Shown one piece after another: positions 4,723 to 61,584 of a stretch of DNA of 64,000 bases (position 1 is its first letter; the number at the start of each line of letters is the position of its first letter). A program made the position numbers and the translations under genes. The notes beneath the pieces were generated by a model. It had not been told where the DNA came from, did not search any database, and was given only the letters and a program-made list of their open reading frames with translations. This DNA comes from an uncultured Gemmatimonadaceae bacterium (GTDB lineage: Bacteria > Gemmatimonadota > Gemmatimonadetes > Gemmatimonadales > Gemmatimonadaceae): assembly GCA_963817955.1 (NCBI GenBank), contig CAWFQK010000003.1, positions 64,001-128,000 of the forward strand. Direction: 5' to 3'.

Positions 4723-5486
4723 ACATGGATTTTCGCGGCAAGACCGCCATCGTCACGGGTGCCGCCCACGGCTTCGGGCGGGCAATCGCATTAGCGTTTG
4801 CTCAACGCGGCGCGGCTGTCTGGGTCTGTGACGTCGTCGAGAGCGAGCTCCTCGAGACGCGGCAGCTCGGCGAAACGGCTGGCGGAACGTGCGCGGCGCG
4901 TGTGGTGGACGTGCGCGACAAACGAGCGGTGGACGGGTTGGTCGCCGCCGCGTCGGCTGAAACGGGACGAGTGGACATTCTGGTGAACAACGCGGGCGGC
5001 GTGCTGGGTCAGGTTGGCCGCCCGTTGGAAGATGTGACGCCGGAGCAGTGGCAGAGCATCTTCGACGTGAACGTGAGCGGCGCGTTCTACCTCTCGCAGG
5101 CTGTTGCGCCGGGAATGAAGACGGCGCGCGGCGGCCGCATCGTCAACATCTCCAGCGGTGCTGGGCTGGGGATCAGTCTCACCGGTATTCAGGCATACGC
5201 ATCGGCGAAGGCAGCGCAGATTGGGTTGACGCGCCAGCTTGCGCACGAGTTGGGACCGTGGGGCATTACGGTCAACAACATCGCGCCGGGATTCGTGCGC
5301 TCCAATGCGGCCACCGAGCGTCAGTGGGAATCCTACGGTGAGCAGGGTCAGCGTGACCTGGTTGAACGAATTGCGCTCAAGCGGCTCGGCACGCCAGAGG
5401 ACATTGCGAACGGCGTGTTGTTCTTCGCGTCAGACTATGCGAATTGGATTACTGGGCAGGTGATTTCGATTGATGGGGGGAAGTGA
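4719..5486 (+). CDS. Short-chain dehydrogenase/reductase (FabG-like)
   Basis: TGAAHGFG, NNAG, YASAK; ATGA overlap with upstream gene. Confidence 0.92.
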   Translation: MNMDFRGKTAIVTGAAHGFGRAIALAFAQRGAAVWVCDVVESELLETRQLGETAGGTCAARVVDVRDKRAVDGLVAAASAETGRVDILVNNAGGVLGQVGRPLEDVTPEQWQSIFDVNVSGAFYLSQAVAPGMKTARGGRIVNISSGAGLGISLTGIQAYASAKAAQIGLTRQLAHELGPWGITVNNIAPGFVRSNAATERQWESYGEQGQRDLVERIALKRLGTPEDIANGVLFFASDYANWITGQVISIDGGK

Positions 5487-9288: not shown

Positions 9289-9361
<73 letters not shown>

Positions 9362-40388: not shown

Positions 40389-40417
40389 AAAAACGGCGCA
40401 TCTTTCGATGCGCCGTT
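40389..40417 (-). terminator. Terminator of rnpB (probably bidirectional)
   Basis: AACGGCGCATC-TTTC-GATGCGCCGTT with A run on plus strand. Confidence 0.8.
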
Positions 40418-40418
40418 C

Positions 40419-40806
40419 GTCGCGAGTCTATAAGCCGGGTTCTGTGAGACGAATTGCTTCGTCCCGGTGATCATTCCTCTCCGAGCGTAGTCGCCTACGC
40501 TCTCTAGCAGCCTACCCGCAGCGTCTTGGTCGAGGTGGGCACCTCTCGCTGCCTATTTGGCCTTGCTCCCGCTGGGGTTTACCCTGCCGCGGCTGTTGCC
40601 AACCGCGCGGTGAGCTCTTACCTCACCATTTCACCCTTACCGAATCCGAGGATTCGGCGGTGTATTTTCTGTGGCACTTTCCGTCGTCACTCGGCCGAAG
40701 CCGACAACGCCCAGGCGTTACCTGGCAGCGCGCCCAATGGAGCCCGGACTTTCCTCGAGCGGTGTTCCCAAGAGATCACCGATCGCGATCACCCGACTGG
40801 CGACTC
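40419..40806 (-). ncRNA. rnpB: RNase P RNA, class A
   Basis: Minus strand has GAGGAAAGTCCGGGCTCC, GAAAGTGCCACAGAAA, GGTAAACCCC..GAGCAAG, ACAGAACCCGGCTTA. Confidence 0.96.
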
Positions 40807-54424: not shown

Positions 54425-54865
54425 GCCGCGATGAAGTGTTCAAATGCCGCGATGAAGTGGATGAATGCCGCGGTCGACTGAGCAAATGCCGCAGTCGACT
54501 AATCATTTGCCGCAGTGAAGTGGACGATTGCCGCGGTCAAGCAGGCGCGTGCCGCTGTTAAGCAAACGTTTGCCGCGATCAAGTGGGCGGGTGCCGCTGT
54601 CGAGTGAGCGTTTGCCGAGGTCGATTGATCGAATGCCGCAGTCGACTGAGCGTTTGCCGCAGTCAAGTAGACAATTGCCGCGGTTAAGCAAACGTTTACC
54701 GCGGTCAAGTGGACGATTGCCGCGGTCGCCTGAGCGCTCGCCGAGGTCCCCTGAATGTTTGCCGAGGTCGAGTGGACGCTCTCCCAGGCCAAGTGGACGG
54801 TCTCCCAAGCCAAGTGGACGGTCTCCCAAGCCAAGTGAGCGCTCTCCCAAGCCAGCTGGACTGAA
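54425..54865. repeat. Tandem array of about 21 degenerate 21-bp units
   Basis: Units start every 21 nt from 54425 with no indels; consensus about GCCGCGGTCAAGTGRNCGNTT, last four start TCCCARGCCA. Confidence 0.93.
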
Positions 54866-54904
54866 TCTCACGTACCGTGGCGAAAGTCATTAGTATCTCG
54901 CGAC

Positions 54905-56161
54905 ATGGGGACTGTCGCGAAACAGGCATTCAAGCCGGGTGCGGACCTGACCATAGTCGCTGATCACGATCCTCGGCGGTGGCGAACGCTCGGATTGCTC
55001 GCGACCGCTGAGCTCTTGGGCATGTCGCTCTGGTTTGCGGCGAGTGCCGTCGCCCCGCAGCTTGGCGCGCGTTGGGACCTCTCGACATCCGAGATTGGCT
55101 GGCTCACGGCGATCGTGCAACTCGGGTTCGTGATTGGCACCGCGACGTCAGCGGTCTTGAACCTGGCCGATATCGTCCCGTCACGATGGCTGTTCGCGAC
55201 GTCTGCAGCACTGGGCGCCGCCGCCAATGCGGCGCTGCTGCTTGCCCCCAGCTTTGCCGGCGCGCTGGCGTGTCGCTTTGCCACAGGCTTCGCTCTGGCC
55301 GGAGTGTATCCGCCGGCGATGAAAATGATCTCGACCTGGTTTCGCTCCCAGCGCGGTCTGGCTGTGGGGACCATTGTCGGGGCGTTGACCGTCGGCAAGG
55401 CAGGCCCGTACCTGGTTCATGCCATTCCTGGAGCCGGCGAGGCGCCGGTCGTTTGGTCCGCGACAGTGGCCGCGCTGGTGGCCGCGCTGATCGTCGGACT
55501 GTGGTACGAGGAAGGCCCCTATCCATTTCCGCCGCGACCGTTCTCGTGGGGGCTCGTGGGCGAAGTGTTCCGGGAACGACGGTGGCGGCTGGCGACGGCT
55601 GGCTATCTGGGCCACATGTTCGAGCTCTACAGCGCGTGGACCTGGCTTCCGGTGTTCGTAGCCGCGAGCGCTGCGGCGGCAGGAGTACCGGCAGGGCCGG
55701 CGCGCGTCTCACTTTCGTCCGCGATAGCGTTCGCGGCAATCGCGATCGGGGGTATTGGTTGCGTGTGGGGGGGCCGAGTCGCTGATCGCCGCGGTCGTGA
55801 GTGGCTCGTCACGGTTTCCATGGCGGCGAGTGGCCTGTGCGCGCTGGCGATCGGGTTCACCTTTGGCCAGAGCTTCCTGCTCCTCGTGCCGGTGGCGCTC
55901 GCCTGGGGGTTCTTCGTCATCGCCGACTCGGCGCAATTCAGCGTTCTCGCAACAGAGGCGGCACCGCCCCATGCCGTTGGAACCGCGCTGACGGTGCAGA
56001 CGTCCCTGGGCTTTCTGTTGACCATGATCTCGATTCAACTCGTTCCACCGGTCCAGCACATTGTTGGCTGGAGGTGGGCGTTCATGATGCTGGCGATCGG
56101 GCCAGCATCTGGAATCGCGGCCATTCGTCGGTTGGCCGAGGGGGCGCGAACGACGCGGTAG
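54905..56161 (+). CDS. MFS transporter
   Basis: 12 TM, VQLGFVIG, GVYPPAMK, GHMFELY, ADRRGR, ADSAQFS. Confidence 0.92.
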   Translation: MGTVAKQAFKPGADLTIVADHDPRRWRTLGLLATAELLGMSLWFAASAVAPQLGARWDLSTSEIGWLTAIVQLGFVIGTATSAVLNLADIVPSRWLFATSAALGAAANAALLLAPSFAGALACRFATGFALAGVYPPAMKMISTWFRSQRGLAVGTIVGALTVGKAGPYLVHAIPGAGEAPVVWSATVAALVAALIVGLWYEEGPYPFPPRPFSWGLVGEVFRERRWRLATAGYLGHMFELYSAWTWLPVFVAASAAAAGVPAGPARVSLSSAIAFAAIAIGGIGCVWGGRVADRRGREWLVTVSMAASGLCALAIGFTFGQSFLLLVPVALAWGFFVIADSAQFSVLATEAAPPHAVGTALTVQTSLGFLLTMISIQLVPPVQHIVGWRWAFMMLAIGPASGIAAIRRLAEGARTTR

Positions 56162-56169
56162 GCTCTGAT

Positions 56170-56350
56170 GGAAGGGTGTGTGCCGACGGGTGACGATCCC
56201 AGAAGCATCCGTGTACGAAGGCGGCGCGCGAGTGATCGGCCGAGACGATGTTTAGCGATCCGGGGATGCCGTGTACGTCGATCGGGAATTCGTGTGCGCT
56301 GTCGCGGGGCGGCAACCCATCCTGAGCACGCTCATGAGTTTTCTGTCCGT
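56170..56350 (-). pseudogene. Remnant of Vsr-like very-short-patch repair endonuclease
   Basis: GIPGSLNIV...AAFVHGCFWDRHP resembles Vsr LPGKPDIV...IFVHGCFWHRH; flanks not recognisable. Confidence 0.6.
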
Positions 56351-56488
56351 TTCTGCATGCTACGCTGCGAGCGCACGCAGCGTAGCGACGGAGGTGCCAT
56401 TGCACATCGAGGGGTAAGCGGTTCGGGCTGCGCAACTTCCAATACTGCGATCTCATCTGTCGTCGGTGCTACGCTGCAAGCGTCGCGA

Positions 56489-56539
56489 TTGTTTTGTGCG
56501 CACCTGCAGCGTATAGTGACCACCCACTTAGCGTTGAAC
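56489..56539 (+). promoter_or_regulatory. Putative cassette promoter (Pc-like) and attI-like first recombination point
   Basis: TTGTTT-17 nt-TATAGT (56489-56517), then GTTGAAC (GTTRRRY) at 56533; no upstream R'' seen. Confidence 0.5.
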
Positions 56540-56654
56540 TCAATCCGCCTGCGGCGGATAGCCCCGGCGTAGATTCCGCCGTGCCTCTCACGGGGTGATT
56601 GCCCGTCGAGACTGCGTGCTGTCAAGTCCTCTCGACCTTTTCAGAGAGGATTGT

Positions 56655-57062
56655 ATGACAGCCCTTCGCCGCCGGATGACCGAGGATCTCCAGCTTCGCG
56701 GCTACGCCGACCGCACGGTCGCGGCGTACCTACTGGCGGTCTCGCAGGTCGCCAAGTTCTACCGGACCGCGCCCGATCAGCTCACCGAGGAACAGCTCCG
56801 CGACTATCTGCTCCACCTCACCACCGTTCGGAAGATCGCCGCGAGCAGCTTCACGCAGACCCTGTGTGGCCTCAAGTTCTTCTATGAGGACACGCTTGGC
56901 CGCCATTGGCCCGTGCTCGACGTGGCGCGCCCGAAGCGCGAGGCCCGACTGCCAGTCGTCCTGAGTCAGGAGGAAGTCCGGCGGGCGCTCGCGGCGGTGC
57001 GGACGCTCCAGTACCGCGTCTGTCTGACCCTCATCTACGCCTGGGGCCTCCGGCTGCTCGAT
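56655..57062 (+). pseudogene. Tyrosine recombinase, N-terminal SAM-like domain to first catalytic Arg, truncated
   Basis: MTALRRRMTEDLQLRGYADRT..Y, LPVVLSQEEV, LIYAWGLRL; HxxR/Y half absent; GAGAGG RBS. Confidence 0.9.
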
Positions 57063-57742
57063 GGCCATCCGCATATGCACCTCCTCGCGACCGCGGCGGC
57101 CTCGCGCCCGACGGGCAGGCGTGGGTCAAGCCTGCCCATGCACGATTCCTCATGCCCGGCTACATGCTGTCGGAACTCTTCCGCGCGAAGATGCGGGACG
57201 CCCGGACGCAGGCCGGCTTCGCGGACCAGATCGCGCCCACGGTGTGGGACCGCCGATGGGTGGTCCATCTCCAACAGATCGGGCGCGGCGACCATGCCCT
57301 GCGCTATTTGGCCCGCTACGTCTTTCACGTCGCCCTCACCAACACGCAGCTCGAGCGGTTCGACCACGGGCGCGTCACCTTCCGCTACACCCACGCGCGC
57401 ACGCAGGAGACACGGCATCTCACCCTCCCGGTCGACGCCTTCATCGCGCGCTTTCTCCAACATGTGCTGCCGCGCGGCTTCACGAAAATTCGCTACTACG
57501 GACTCCTGAGCCCCGGTTGCCGAGCGAAGCGCGACCGCGCCCGCCTCCTCCTCGAGCTCCACACCGCGCCGGCCCCTCGCCCAGAGCCAGGGCCGGCGGA
57601 CGCGCGCATCACCAGGACTCCGCTCATCAGGACTCCGCCCACCAGTGCCGTCCCGCGCCCGACGCGACTCCAGTGTCGCGCCTGTCAGCACGGCCACCTC
57701 TACCTCATCGAGCGCGTCGACCGACCGCGCGCCCCGCCATGA
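57063..57742 (+). pseudogene. IS91-family (Y2 HUH) transposase, C-terminal half, frameshift near 57093
   Basis: HPHMH (HUH), GGL, YLARY, FLQHVLPRGFTKIRYYGLL, C-terminal CRAC; N-terminal Zn-binding domain missing. Confidence 0.9.
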
Positions 57743-58037
57743 CGCGCTTGGTTCGGTCAACAGGCTCGGATCAGGGATCGGCAACGGTGTCGCTCGCGCC
57801 GCCGTCCAGCCATGCTGCACCCTGCCCCGACGTACCACGTCTTGCACCGGGTACATCGGCACGGACCCGCGCTCACCCGCCGCCACTCGGCGCCTTCGCC
57901 GAGTCGCGCGCCCCCCTCGGCTTACGATATTCGCGTCGCGCGCGCATTCTGGCTCCGTAGATCCTCGCGGCGGCGGTCCCCATCTCGCTTGAAAGTCCAA
58001 AGGGCTGGGTCACTCCCGCCCGTCACGCGCGGATCGA

Positions 58038-58094
58038 GTTCAACTGGAGATTTTGCCGCGGCTTCGCGCGGCACGAATCTCTACTGCGTTATAT
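58038..58094 (+). other. attC site 1 (57 bp)
   Basis: R'' GTTCAAC, hairpin GAGATT..GCCGCG / CGCGGC..AATCTC, R' GTTATAT. Confidence 0.75.
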
Positions 58095-58159
58095 GGCCAT
58101 CGAGTTCCTCGAAAAACGCCGCGCTTGCAGGGAACTGCGAACCGGAGCAACTTTCAGCT

Positions 58160-58363
58160 ATGACTGATCGGCCCAATATCAAGGCTGACGCCCGCGACCT
58201 CGTTGACCATCTCCCGGAGTCGGCCACGTGGGACGACCTCGCCTATGAGGTCTACGTCCGGCAAGCGATCGAGGCCGGGCTCGCAGACTCGGACGCAGGA
58301 CGGACTCTCTCGCACGACGAGGCGATGGCCCGCATTCGTAGTCGGATTCGTCGCGCGTCATGA
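58160..58363 (+). CDS. Putative antitoxin
   Basis: LPESATWDDLAYEVYVRQAIEAGLAD..AGRTLSHDE; ATGA overlap with toxin. Confidence 0.85.
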   Translation: MTDRPNIKADARDLVDHLPESATWDDLAYEVYVRQAIEAGLADSDAGRTLSHDEAMARIRSRIRRAS

Positions 58364-58659
58364 CCCTTCCGCTCCGGTGGACGGAGCGCGCGACCGAGCA
58401 GCTCGGCGCCATCGCGGAGTACATCAGTATCAGCTCACCGGTTTATGCCGATCAAACGGTCGAGCGGATTGTATCGCGGCTTCGCCAGGCGCAGGCGTTC
58501 CCCGAGTCCGGCCGTCGCGTGCCGGAGATTGCCGCGGTCGACGTGCGCGAACTGATCGAGCCACCCTATCACCTCGTGTATCGCGTGCGCGACACGGCGA
58601 TCGAAGTTCTTGTCGTCATTCACAGTCGTCAGAACCTCACTGACATCGTGCCAGGCTAG
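58360..58659 (+). CDS. RelE/ParE family toxin
   Basis: WTERA..QL..I.EYI, FPESGRRVPE, RELI..PY.LVYRV, VIH. Confidence 0.92.
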   Translation: MTLPLRWTERATEQLGAIAEYISISSPVYADQTVERIVSRLRQAQAFPESGRRVPEIAAVDVRELIEPPYHLVYRVRDTAIEVLVVIHSRQNLTDIVPG

Positions 58660-58674
58660 TTCCGTGTGGTGGCC

Positions 58675-58796
58675 ATATAACGAACGCTGAACTTGACGAG
58701 TTCTGCATTCGGCCGGTCGTGGCGCCCGTTGGCATCGCGCACTAGTCTTTTGGTATCGAGCCTAATCGGGCTCGCAAGTTAGCTGGGGCGTTCGCC
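58675..58796 (+). other. attC site 2 (122 bp)
   Basis: R'' ATATAAC; GCT[G]AACTTG[A]CGAG pairs with CTCGCAAGTTAGC leaving two extrahelical bases; R' GTTCGCC; TGGCCATATAAC is the exact reverse complement of the cassette start GTTATATGGCCA (58088). Confidence 0.9.
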
Positions 58797-58851
58797 AGCG
58801 ATTAGCGCCGTACGATGCTATGCGATCTCACCGACCGAGAGAACAACAGTA

Positions 58852-59040
58852 GTGTCTGAACAGCCAAGCGTTGAGAAACCTGCGGATCACCAGCTATTTC
58901 ACCGGAAGCATGTTGTAGGCCTAGCTTGGGCGGTGGTCGGCGGTTTGATCACGGCCACTGTTGTGACGGCATACCAAGCGACGCAGCATTCGGTCCTTGA
59001 ACGCCGGACTGTATTGCGGCATGACACTACCCACCTGTGA
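58852..59040 (+). CDS. Small single-TM ORF at cassette start, possibly truncated
   Basis: GTG start close to R' with GAGAG upstream; one hydrophobic helix. Confidence 0.35.
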   Translation: MSEQPSVEKPADHQLFHRKHVVGLAWAVVGGLITATVVTAYQATQHSVLERRTVLRHDTTHL

Positions 59041-59639
59041 CCCCCGAGGATGGTGTACGTTTGACCGCTTAAGCTACTGCGATCGTACGACAACTATCCT
59101 GACACCGGGGGTTCGGACCTCTCGCGCCCGATACCACGAATAGGGATCGGCCTTGCCGTATCGCTCGTTGTGCATGCGATACTGCGGCATTGATCACCTT
59201 GTTCGCTGTCATTACCCTTCTGAGCGACACCAGACCAATGCCCGTCGACCGGAAGGAATGGGGCGGGCGGGCTGTCGCGGCGCTCGCGGCCGGCGTCGTT
59301 TGTGCCCTCGCCTGGAGACTGCTGACGCGATTCCCGCACATGTGATCCGGGCGAATCAGGCGCGATTCGGACGGCTCGCGACAACTTTACGTTGGTCGTT
59401 CGAACCGGATCAGGAGTCGGCTGGCGAGTCATTGCCGAGATAGTCCATGCCACAACGCGGCAAGCTTCGTGTTCCGGCTGGCGCGCGAAGGTACTGGCAT
59501 GACGGAAGCATCATACACGACGTGGGGTTCTCGGCCCGCACTTGGCGATGACCCTGAGTTCATGCGGTCGTTTGGTGAGGCGAAGAGATTCTTCTCCGCT
59601 CGACTCAGCCAGCAACCGACCACTCGGCGCAAGGAGATC

Positions 59640-60708: not shown

Positions 60709-60802
60709 GGCTAACAACCATTGGAGCAACCGGGCGATTTAAGGATTGCGCATGCTGCGCGCTCTGATTTGGTTCGCGCGCAGCTCAATTCGGACGTTCT
60801 AT
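60709..60802 (+). other. attC site 3 (about 94 bp), interrupted at R' by IS110 remnant
   Basis: R'' GGCTAAC, ATTG[G]AGC pairs with GCTCAAT, then TCGGAC-GTT. Confidence 0.8.
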
Positions 60803-61141: not shown

Positions 61142-61375
61142 ATGGGTGATCCGGCGTTCAATTACCACGACCTTCCAATCCCCGAGCGGGTGAAGCTCGT
61201 TGAGGACATCTGGGACAGCATCGCCGACGAGGCCAACGCTCGACCAGACTCGCTCCCCATCTCACCGGCCCAGCGCGCGGAACTGGAGCGTCGGGCTGTG
61301 GACGCTGACGCGCATCCGGACGAGGCGATTCCTTGGGAGCAGGTGCGCGATGAGTTGTTTCGGCGCGGCGGGTGA
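61142..61375 (+). CDS. Addiction module antitoxin (TIGR02574-like)
   Basis: LPIPERVKLVEDIWDSI, ELERR, IPWEQVR. Confidence 0.9.
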   Translation: MGDPAFNYHDLPIPERVKLVEDIWDSIADEANARPDSLPISPAQRAELERRAVDADAHPDEAIPWEQVRDELFRRGG

Positions 61376-61584
61376 CGCCGCGCTTCGTCTTTCATCCCGC
61401 GGCGCGCGCCGATCTACGCGACGCGCGCGACTGGTATGAGGCGCAGCGGACGGGCCTCGGCCGTGAGTTTGGCGACGTGATCGCCGCTACGCTCGACCGG
61501 ATCGCCCCACATCCCGAGGCCTATCCGGATGTTTTGGGCTCGCTGCGCCGCGCCGTGCTCGCGTCCGAATGGGCGTCGCGCTGA
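61372..61584 (+). pseudogene. RelE/ParE family toxin, C-terminally truncated
   Basis: FHPAARADL..A.DWYE..R.GLG.EF...RRAVL then diverges; 70 aa, lacks the FPY..Y strands. Confidence 0.75.

Follow-up and report, generated by a model that had tools for sequence, protein, structure and literature searches.

The window analyzed here is a stretch of 64,000 nucleotides (G000:C3:64001-128000) from the 94% complete assembly of an uncultured Gemmatimonadaceae bacterium, genome G000. It contains an integron cassette array, the features of which are described below on the plus strand. The first position of this array is occupied by the remains of an insertion sequence (IS) that combines a tyrosine recombinase gene (int) with the transposase gene of an IS91-family element (tnpA), here called the int+IS91 element (56533-58087). 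It opens with GTTGAAC at 56533, is closed by GTTCAAC at 58038 and a 43-nt hairpin, and is followed by G|TTATAT (GTTATAT, 58088-58094), which is the succession of boundaries expected of a cassette. The two motifs belong to inverted-repeat arms, of which the left one (IRL, 56533-56557) opens with the core-site-like GTTGAAC (56533-56539) and the right one (IRR, 58020-58044) closes with the R''-like GTTCAAC (58038-58044). The arms are 25 nt long and 80% complementary, and they form the second longest of 125 inverted pairs in 56200-59200. Close to the left end, a hairpin (ATCCGCC-TGC-GGCGGAT, 56543-56559) is predicted to fold with -7.1 kcal/mol (z -2.1). On the bottom strand, this palindrome precedes TGA-GTTCAAC, an arrangement reminiscent of an IS91-type terIS end, and a hairpin is found at this position in relatives as well.

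Both genes are fragments, with the N-terminal third of the tyrosine recombinase joined to the C-terminal half of the transposase. The recombinase remnant (56655-57055) comprises the N-terminal ~134 codons with a SAM-like domain (PF13495 Phage_int_SAM_4, E 1.1e-21 in the Pfam search, in frame 56655-57506) and extends to the catalytic-arginine motif GLRL. It ends at a deletion junction (57056-57065), where ~955 bp are absent in comparison with an intact relative from genome G006: by blastn, 56531-57055 corresponds to L026 4083-4605 and 57066-57567 to L026 5561-6063 of that relative. The deletion removed the C-terminal half of the recombinase and the N-terminal ~155 codons of the transposase. The remnant of this IS91-family Y2 HUH transposase (57066-57742) starts at the HUH motif HPHMHLL, suffers a frameshift between 57085 and 57112, according to three-frame translations against the G006 transposase (TnpA), and continues in frame 57113-57742. 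It is 61% identical to G006 TnpA over 209 aa and matches PF04986 Y2_Tnp (Pfam, E 1.3e-30, profile positions 39-180 of 183, in 57113-57739). Given the deletion and the frameshift, the copy is predicted to be dead and cannot move itself, while its ends are intact.

The tail hairpin (58046-58082) pairs GGAGATT-T-TGCCGCG with CGCGGCA-CG-AATCTCT around the loop GCTTCG. Folded as single-stranded DNA, 58038-58094 reaches -13.0 kcal/mol on the plus and -13.1 kcal/mol on the minus strand (z -3.2 and -3.9); one of 200 shuffles folded as well on the plus strand and none of 200 on the minus strand. The last stretch of the element is the motif AATCTCTACTGC (58076-58087), kept in relatives as (A/G)ATC(C/T)(C/T)T..(C) directly before the flanking GTT and a candidate for the oriIS nick region. 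No intact copy was found in the G000 assembly, where PF04986 gives one match genome-wide; the only other trace of an IS91 transposase is a 3' fragment at G000:C4:488292-488831.

The array reads attI, dead int+IS91 element, ParE toxin-antitoxin (TA) cassette and a third cassette of 2 kb. In front of the element lies an orphan copy of the attI region of the genome (56295-56533), which ends ...CACTTAGCG at the crossover G (56533) and holds two inverted-repeat pairs with the motif TACGCTGC/GCAGCGTA. It is 83-86% identical to four further copies in G000 (five in total), one of which lies directly behind the only true intI of the genome (G000:C4:1373624-1374562; 414.3-414.6 bits on TIGR02249, cut-off 265); against this intI-linked copy, 195 of 230 positions are identical. 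Each of the five stops at G|TT (in one case A|TT), with different DNA behind it. Because one copy is linked to intI and all of them end in this way before different sequences, the repeat is taken to be the attI region. The leader in the window accordingly has the properties that define an attI, to judge from its homologous copy, which lies between intI and the first cassette, and from the unrelated sequences joined at G|TT.

On the other side, the TA cassette (58088-58796) starts at G|TTATAT, encodes an antitoxin (58160-58363) and a ParE toxin (58360-58659; PF05016, Pfam E 1.7e-14), and ends in a canonical attC (58675-58796). Covariance models were built from attC sites of the host lineage, R1 from four and R2 from 15 sites; R2 assigns this attC 48.0 bits (E 1.7e-10), and 61.3 bits (E 7.6e-14) to the canonical attC that closes the third cassette (60709-60802). 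The start TTATAT of the TA cassette is complementary to its own R'' ATATAAC, and the complementarity extends over 12 nt (gttatatggcca at 58088-58099 against tggccatataac at 58670-58681). The right flank of the element therefore belongs to the next cassette.

Much of this had been anticipated in the initial annotation of the stretch. The GTTGAAC and GTTCAAC ends are present at 56533 and 58038, and the two 16-mers quoted there from these ends are complementary at 15 of 16 positions. The R'/R'' relation, said to be shared by the neighboring TA cassette, is seen in its 12 complementary nt. The SAM-like tyrosine recombinase and the IS91 Y2 HUH transposase are those matched by PF13495 and PF04986, and the copy was rightly called dead. 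Its first position in an array without intI is likewise borne out, with a major facilitator superfamily (MFS) transporter gene upstream of the orphan attI. The putative cassette promoter Pc found no counterpart, as a consensus scan returned 0 promoter-like sites in 56100-58200.

Conserved ends and insertion sites of the family

The dead copy belongs to a family with intact members. In G006, another species of the genus, a copy of 2472 bp encodes a recombinase of 290 aa directly upstream of a transposase of 384 aa, which scores 344.3 bits on the IS91 model NF033538 (cut-off 125) and shows the HUH motif YHPHAHLL and the tyrosines of RYLARYV. Intact relatives measure 2.44-2.49 kb at 35-74% protein identity and occur in Gemmatimonadota, but also on plasmids of Proteobacteria and Chloroflexota. 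Among 401 Gemmatimonadota genomes searched, 24 hold relatives of the transposase, a tally that counts G000 itself and the unpublished genome G104. The int gene lies just upstream of tnpA and on the same strand in 29 of the 35 loci examined; the six loci without it, among them the G104 locus (L045), the only further use made of that genome, are copies that are truncated or cut by a contig end.

The intact elements follow one layout. On the left, a GTTG(A/G)AC arm with a ..CCGC hairpin precedes int and then tnpA. On the right, an inverted copy of the arm lies 45-100 nt before the right end and is followed by the tail hairpin (43 to ~90 nt across the family), the terminal motif and the flanking GTT. 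These ends are retained in relatives of as little as 35% protein identity and, beside unrelated flanks, across genomes, loci and phyla. Pairing between the arms covers 14-23 of 26 positions in 11 elements, and the two arms vary jointly (GTTGAAC or GTTGGAC; ATCCGC, AACCGC or AGCCGC). The tail hairpin shows compensatory changes at five of 16 pairs among eight distinct sequences, a level of covariation reached by none of 500 shuffles, with slid controls giving 0-1. Since the ends are the same family-wide, the apparent attC of the window belongs to the element itself, and their recurrence in relatives, together with the covariation of the tail, excludes an arrangement by chance.

The same architecture is found in three plasmid copies: ISAzo26 (Aromatoleum EbN1 plasmid 2) and copies on S. 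meliloti pMl2 and Herpetosiphon pHAU01. Recombinase homologues are present in 443 plasmid records, these three among them. The PGAP label 'IS91-like element ISAzo26 family transposase' stands next to a tyrosine recombinase, and ISfinder presumably lists several ISAzo26-like members with a recombinase of unknown role. In the ISAzo26-like elements, too, int comes first and tnpA follows 10-25 bp behind; the left end reads GTTGGAC TAAACCGC.., the right end ..GCGGTTCAGTCCAAC with a tail hairpin, and the recombinase is 42% identical to that of G006. Unlike the element in the window, the copy of ISAzo26 examined sits on a plasmid between IS elements, with the flank ATTATGC and no recognisable integron site. 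Plasmid relatives (40% identity) carry the same ends between ordinary genes and IS elements (flanks ATTATGC and ATTCCCA), and plasmid copies have flanks ending in ..AAT. A full-text literature search found no description of ISAzo26-like ends, of their target rule or of the role of the recombinase.

At the insertion sites, GTT begins 18 of the 20 distinct right junctions, mostly as GTTAG(G/A)(C/T), and GAT the other two. For the window, G006, L023 and copies c1 and c4 of G266, the reverse complement of the right flank is the R'' of the attC of the next cassette, an attC that scores 104 bits in G006. Direct copies, i.e., copies in cassette orientation at a junction between attI and a cassette, are present in the window, in G006 behind a diverged attI homologue, and in the complete genome G266, where one lies right behind intI and c1, c2 and c4 lie behind attI copies or pieces. 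Read from their flanks, such copies look exactly like a cassette with its own attC, and the window is an instance of this. The flanks of other copies show a second arrangement, in which the element is inverted inside an attC, in its R'' box. At L029, the attC model matches the minus strand (4893-4982, 34.2 bits); there the terminal GTTCAAC of the element replaces R'', the displaced GCCTAAC is found at the other end of the element, and the adjacent attCs are likewise on the minus strand. Copies a and b of G376 are also inverted within the R'' of an attC, according to a fold test on the rejoined flanks, the strict form of which, needing AAC-GTT end pairing, gave nothing and was replaced by a relaxed form. 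The attC models gave only two weak matches for the G266 loci and nothing for those of G376 (family f7); the attCs of f7 were judged by eye and by the fold test. With the copies at L029 and in G376, insertion is not confined to cassette orientation at R' or attI.

In both arrangements, the end of the tail adjoins the 3' side of 5'-RYYYAAC-3' (GTTRRRY on the other strand). As the arms are inverted repeats, the array keeps its cassette syntax in either orientation. In the inverted case, we infer that the displaced R'', the tail and the internal arm may serve as a surrogate attC for the upstream cassette.

Recombinase, movement and competing explanations

The recombinase retains the catalytic R, K, H-x-x-R, H and Y. 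Its best NCBIfam family is TIGR02249, at 194.4 bits and thus below the cut-off of 265. An alignment of four IntI, five element recombinases and two host Xer proteins reveals ~30 residues that are present in all IntI and absent from both the element recombinases and Xer. In a quick tree (25 rows, limited to the 18 distinct recombinases that a single match spans in full), the element recombinase clusters with IntI and is separated from three host tyrosine recombinases (SH-aLRT 98). On these comparisons, it is IntI-like but not an IntI.

Two genomes hold nearly identical copies. In G376 (100% complete, three contigs), no intI is found by TIGR02249, the best match being the element's own int with 121 bits. 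Its copies lie at L075 3679-6117, L076 4448-6887, L077 4455-6894 and L078 1-2264, with lesions that are apparently complementary. Over 2440 bp, copies a, b and c show 99.96-100% identity. All three have an open int but a tnpA disrupted by the same two lesions, a 1-nt insertion and a 26-bp deletion, so that their multiplication either drew on TnpA provided in trans or took place in its absence. In copy d, tnpA is open (381 codons), and a C-run of int differs by 1 nt, perhaps through an assembly error. In G266, four copies of 2488 bp are 99.96-100% identical, whereas the attI copies in front of them are only 71-80% alike, which points to recent, independent arrivals at attI. As far as can be read from the copies of G376 and G266, they show that host IntI is not required for movement. 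One-ended (read-through) IS91 transposition was also considered as the source of the orphan attI copies. The idea arose from the attI pieces of unequal length (~190, ~70 and ~14 bp) that adjoin the identical G266 elements. It is disfavored because these pieces have diverged: the two longer ones are 80% (152/190) and 71% (50/70) identical to the intI-linked attI, versus 99.96-100% for the elements. When the right flank was joined to left-flank positions at offsets of 0-299, the hairpins did not exceed chance level.

The family shares with IS91, IS801 and IS1294 a Y2 HUH transposase and the lack of a long target duplication, and its two ends with subterminal palindromes may be unlike in the same way; as in these elements, a short target beside the oriIS end resembles the cleavage site at the left end (PMC13181058, in the excerpts available). 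According to the same excerpts, IS91 has a left terIS palindrome beside a cleavage tetranucleotide and a target tetranucleotide beside oriIS, and its functional intermediate is a single-stranded circle of the bottom strand (PMC13181058). The target GTTC/CTTG, given there for canonical IS91 (PMC13181058), is replaced in the family by a flank ..YAAC (..TAAC or ..CAAC) within integron core heptamers. The family thus appears to follow the same logic, a target that resembles the left terminus ..CAAC, with another motif. The canonical elements lack the recombinase gene and the repeated, internal left arm, and their joined ends have no fold resembling an attC; the ends of the family have the left palindrome and the tail hairpin, plus the inverted repeat with the right arm 45-100 nt inside the right end. 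The family can be described, from its ends and targets, as belonging to IS91 but differing from known members in its target rule and in the architecture of its ends, both of which are new.

We consider it probable that the locus holds a dead ISAzo26-like int+IS91 insertion sequence of a kind that uses its own enzymes to home to integron core sites and that mimics a cassette. As the arms are perfect core sites (GTTRRRY) and the recombinase is IntI-like, the latter probably binds both arms of the element and the target core. By analogy with IS91 itself, the HUH transposase probably frees the bottom strand as a single-stranded circle, the joined ends of which would fold into one long attC-like hairpin. 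When the ends were joined by script, one long hairpin formed on the bottom strand in all five elements tested, with -27 to -44 kcal/mol (z -5.4 to -8.3 versus 100 mononucleotide shuffles). IntI cuts attC at a known position, and the simulated circle junction lies within one base of it. As to integration, the recombinase of the element has about an even chance of being the responsible enzyme; the HUH enzyme, which would then work 3' of ..YAAC in keeping with the tetranucleotide rule of IS91, is a tentative candidate, and host IntI in trans an unlikely one. HUH circle-making combined with insertion by a recombinase, as the initial annotation proposed, is the most attractive model.

A number of points weigh against this interpretation. 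The circle and the mobility are deduced from sequence alone, and the circle junction is a scripted joining of ends, i.e., a simulation only. The tree was rooted at its midpoint and includes no more than three outgroup rows. The apparent lack of intI in G376 relies on one family model and one assembly, and the direct insertions at attI are what host IntI would make of a real cassette, so that IntI-driven movement would be possible there. No insertion target was identified for G376 copy c and G266 copy c3, and two G376 flanks, GATAGGC, have no recognisable partner R''. The non-integron context was read on two of the 443 plasmid records, on plasmids that were not searched for attC. Finally, the junction is ambiguous within the shared GTT, and a |GTT cut, as made by an HUH enzyme, is therefore indistinguishable from the G|TT cut of a tyrosine recombinase.

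The unit might instead be a true cassette, in which the 57-nt hairpin is a real attC, host IntI moves the whole and the genes are passengers or helpers. The G|TT junction behind attI in the window, in G006 and in four G266 copies fits this, as do the first six bases TTGAAC, which are complementary to the internal GTTCAA as in real cassettes. IntI places new cassettes at the first position, where the element of the window is found; a truncated copy elsewhere in G000 (L008) lies between canonical attCs like a cassette, and G000, G266 and G319 encode IntI. Like a cassette, the element starts at G|TTRRRY behind attI, with a start complementary to the RYYYAAC before the hairpin and in the orientation of its neighbors. 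Unlike a cassette, it encodes mobility genes, and its complementarity reaches 10-19 nt past the R box, with covariation, a feature that an ordinary cassette can do without. IntI integration at R' does not yield the inverted copies in R'' boxes, and identical copies exist in G376, where no intI was found, and like ends on plasmid copies outside arrays. The tail itself also differs from an attC. With filters off and E <= 10, none of the 48 R2 matches listed overlaps 58038-58094, while the neighboring attCs score 48.0 and 61.3 bits; R2 is, to be sure, lineage-specific and ~98 nt long, and could simply miss a short attC of 57 nt, which tempers this result. The folded bottom strand of an attC has an unpaired central spacer and extrahelical bases. 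The predicted G006 tail is a perfect 15-pair stem without extrahelical bases, with only a one-sided 5-nt bulge beside the R box, and that of the window has a 1 x 2 internal loop, so that the modeled tails lack these hallmarks. On balance, a true cassette is an unlikely explanation. The initial annotation had credited the unit with a 57-bp attC of its own and had suggested a self-mobile cassette. The cassette-like ends, the att location, the attI|cassette sites and the conservation of a mobile int+IS91 family stand; the hairpin turns out to be part of the element and is not reported by R2, and the inverted R'' copies, the genome without detected intI and the plasmid copies do not agree with a cassette. 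Of the checks it suggested, intact relatives do begin with GTTG(A/G)AC, and the recombinase is nearer IntI than the host's Xer proteins. Two observations it had named as adverse, copies outside arrays and a hairpin that an attC model does not report, were partly made.

Pure rolling-circle transposition of the IS91 type would dispense with the recombinase: HUH alone would nick 3' of ..YAAC at the oriIS junction and at the ..GTTCAAC terIS end and join the circle 3' of ..YAAC. Integron cores would then be struck only for their ..YAAC on folded single strands, and the recombinase would serve elsewhere, e.g., in multimer resolution or regulation. The bottom strand of the left end, a palindrome followed by ..GTTCAAC, is matched by the target ..(T/C)AAC, much as GTTC serves as both terIS site and target in IS801 and IS1294 (excerpts of PMC13181058). 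The orientation rule also holds throughout, with the tail always 3' of the motif, and plasmid flanks end in ..AAT. HUH alone nonetheless leaves unexplained the second arm and the conserved, covarying long-range pairing, as well as the perfect GTTRRRY arms and the retention of int in 29 of 35 loci; copies a-c of G376 have multiplied with a broken tnpA, although copy d could supply TnpA in trans. We regard this explanation, and with it a recombinase devoted to other tasks, as improbable. Chance, i.e., an ordinary IS91 inside an existing cassette to which the repeat and the hairpin belong, could not be separated from homing by the window itself. However, the arms, the tail and the terminal motif travel with the element across genomes, loci and phyla beside unrelated flanks, and the different flanks exclude a single orthologous locus, which makes this the least credible account. 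A more far-reaching and rather doubtful idea is that the int+IS91 family is a self-contained 'proto-cassette': HUH would make the circle, the circle would fold like an attC, the IntI-like recombinase, which lacks the extra domain of IntI, would insert it at any GTTRRRY in either orientation while the array stays readable, and tails left behind would become attCs for neighboring genes. Solo tails do exist. If true, new cassettes would arise from the family, which would itself be an extant relative of the system ancestral to IntI and attC.

If the family homes to integron core sites, its significance lies in the company it would keep. To our knowledge, mobile elements of only two kinds target integron sites in this way, namely the IS1111-attC elements of the IS110 family and the class C-attC group II introns. 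The enzyme of the former is a DEDD transposase, and class C-attC introns rely on a reverse transcriptase/ribozyme. We know of no report of either at attI. Both are named as attC invaders in the excerpts of PMC9229058, and they resemble the family in their specific invasion of integron recombination sites; neither imitates a cassette. A third kind would suggest a testable function for the unexplained 'extra integrase' found in some IS91 members, would tie rolling-circle production of single-stranded DNA to the recombination of folded single strands, and would bear on the origin of attC and the reshaping of integrase-less arrays. As for precedents, ISShvi3 in a Shewanella integron receives a single passing remark in the excerpts of PMC9229058, without analysis of ends, target, recombinase or distribution. 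This remark is the only related mention that the literature search found; to judge from its wording, ISShvi3 may be the same phenomenon. Contributed here are the direct mode of insertion at the attI junction, which gives a perfect cassette mimic, the occurrence of both modes in one phylum, a case without detected intI, and covarying arms that are themselves core sites. The window copy adds context rather than mechanism. Note that int+IS91 elements are easily mis-annotated as cassettes or integron integrases, and orphan tails as attC sites.

Orphan attI copies, solo tails and minor observations

The attI copies of G000 lie at 56295-56533 of the window, at G000:C4:1374563-1374794 (L003/L063), at L008 2711-2949, and in L005 and L006. 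Their left extents range from ~70 to >240 bp. The intI gene, the copy linked to it and its cassettes share one strand and direction, and each of the four orphan copies heads a cassette array of its own; G266 shows a like pattern.

A truncated copy of the element is present at L008 11290-11833 (G000:C4 ~488290-488833). What remains of it is the end of tnpA (~75 codons), the non-coding stretch to the right of the gene and the tail (L008 11759-11833). This remnant is 86% identical to the window copy and lies between a canonical attC and the next cassette (G|TTATAC), so that it looks like a cassette with its left part replaced. A solo, diverged tail hairpin (..AATCTCTACTGC|GTCAGGC) stands between two genes at G000:C4:1268066-1268109 (L007 ~1501-1544). 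Neither an element body nor a canonical attC was found near it, and it may be the leftover of an old insertion.

Two further int+IS91 pairs at 30-37% identity, L027 (G025:C24) and L024 (G008:C551), were set aside, as they show no clear GTTGRAC/tail ends. L027 has another long palindrome (GGAGGTTTTCG...CGAAAACCTTC) downstream of tnpA, and a different palindrome is carried by the right end of L030, an IS91 relative without int from a metagenome-assembled genome of Terriglobia.

Elsewhere in the window, a second small gene pair follows the last attC (61162-61584). A 70-aa open reading frame within it gives a weak, partial match to ParE_toxin (E 2.2e-4, profile positions 2-48 of 89), and the pair may be a decayed TA cassette at the end of the array. 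At ~54430-54900, open frames on both strands encode short repeated peptide motifs, e.g., ..LGDRPLGLGDRPLGLGERPL.., which suggests that a tandem DNA repeat lies immediately upstream of the MFS transporter gene. An Rfam scan of the whole window located the bacterial RNase P class A RNA (40415-40804, minus strand, 303 bits) and a tRNA gene (9289-9361, minus strand).

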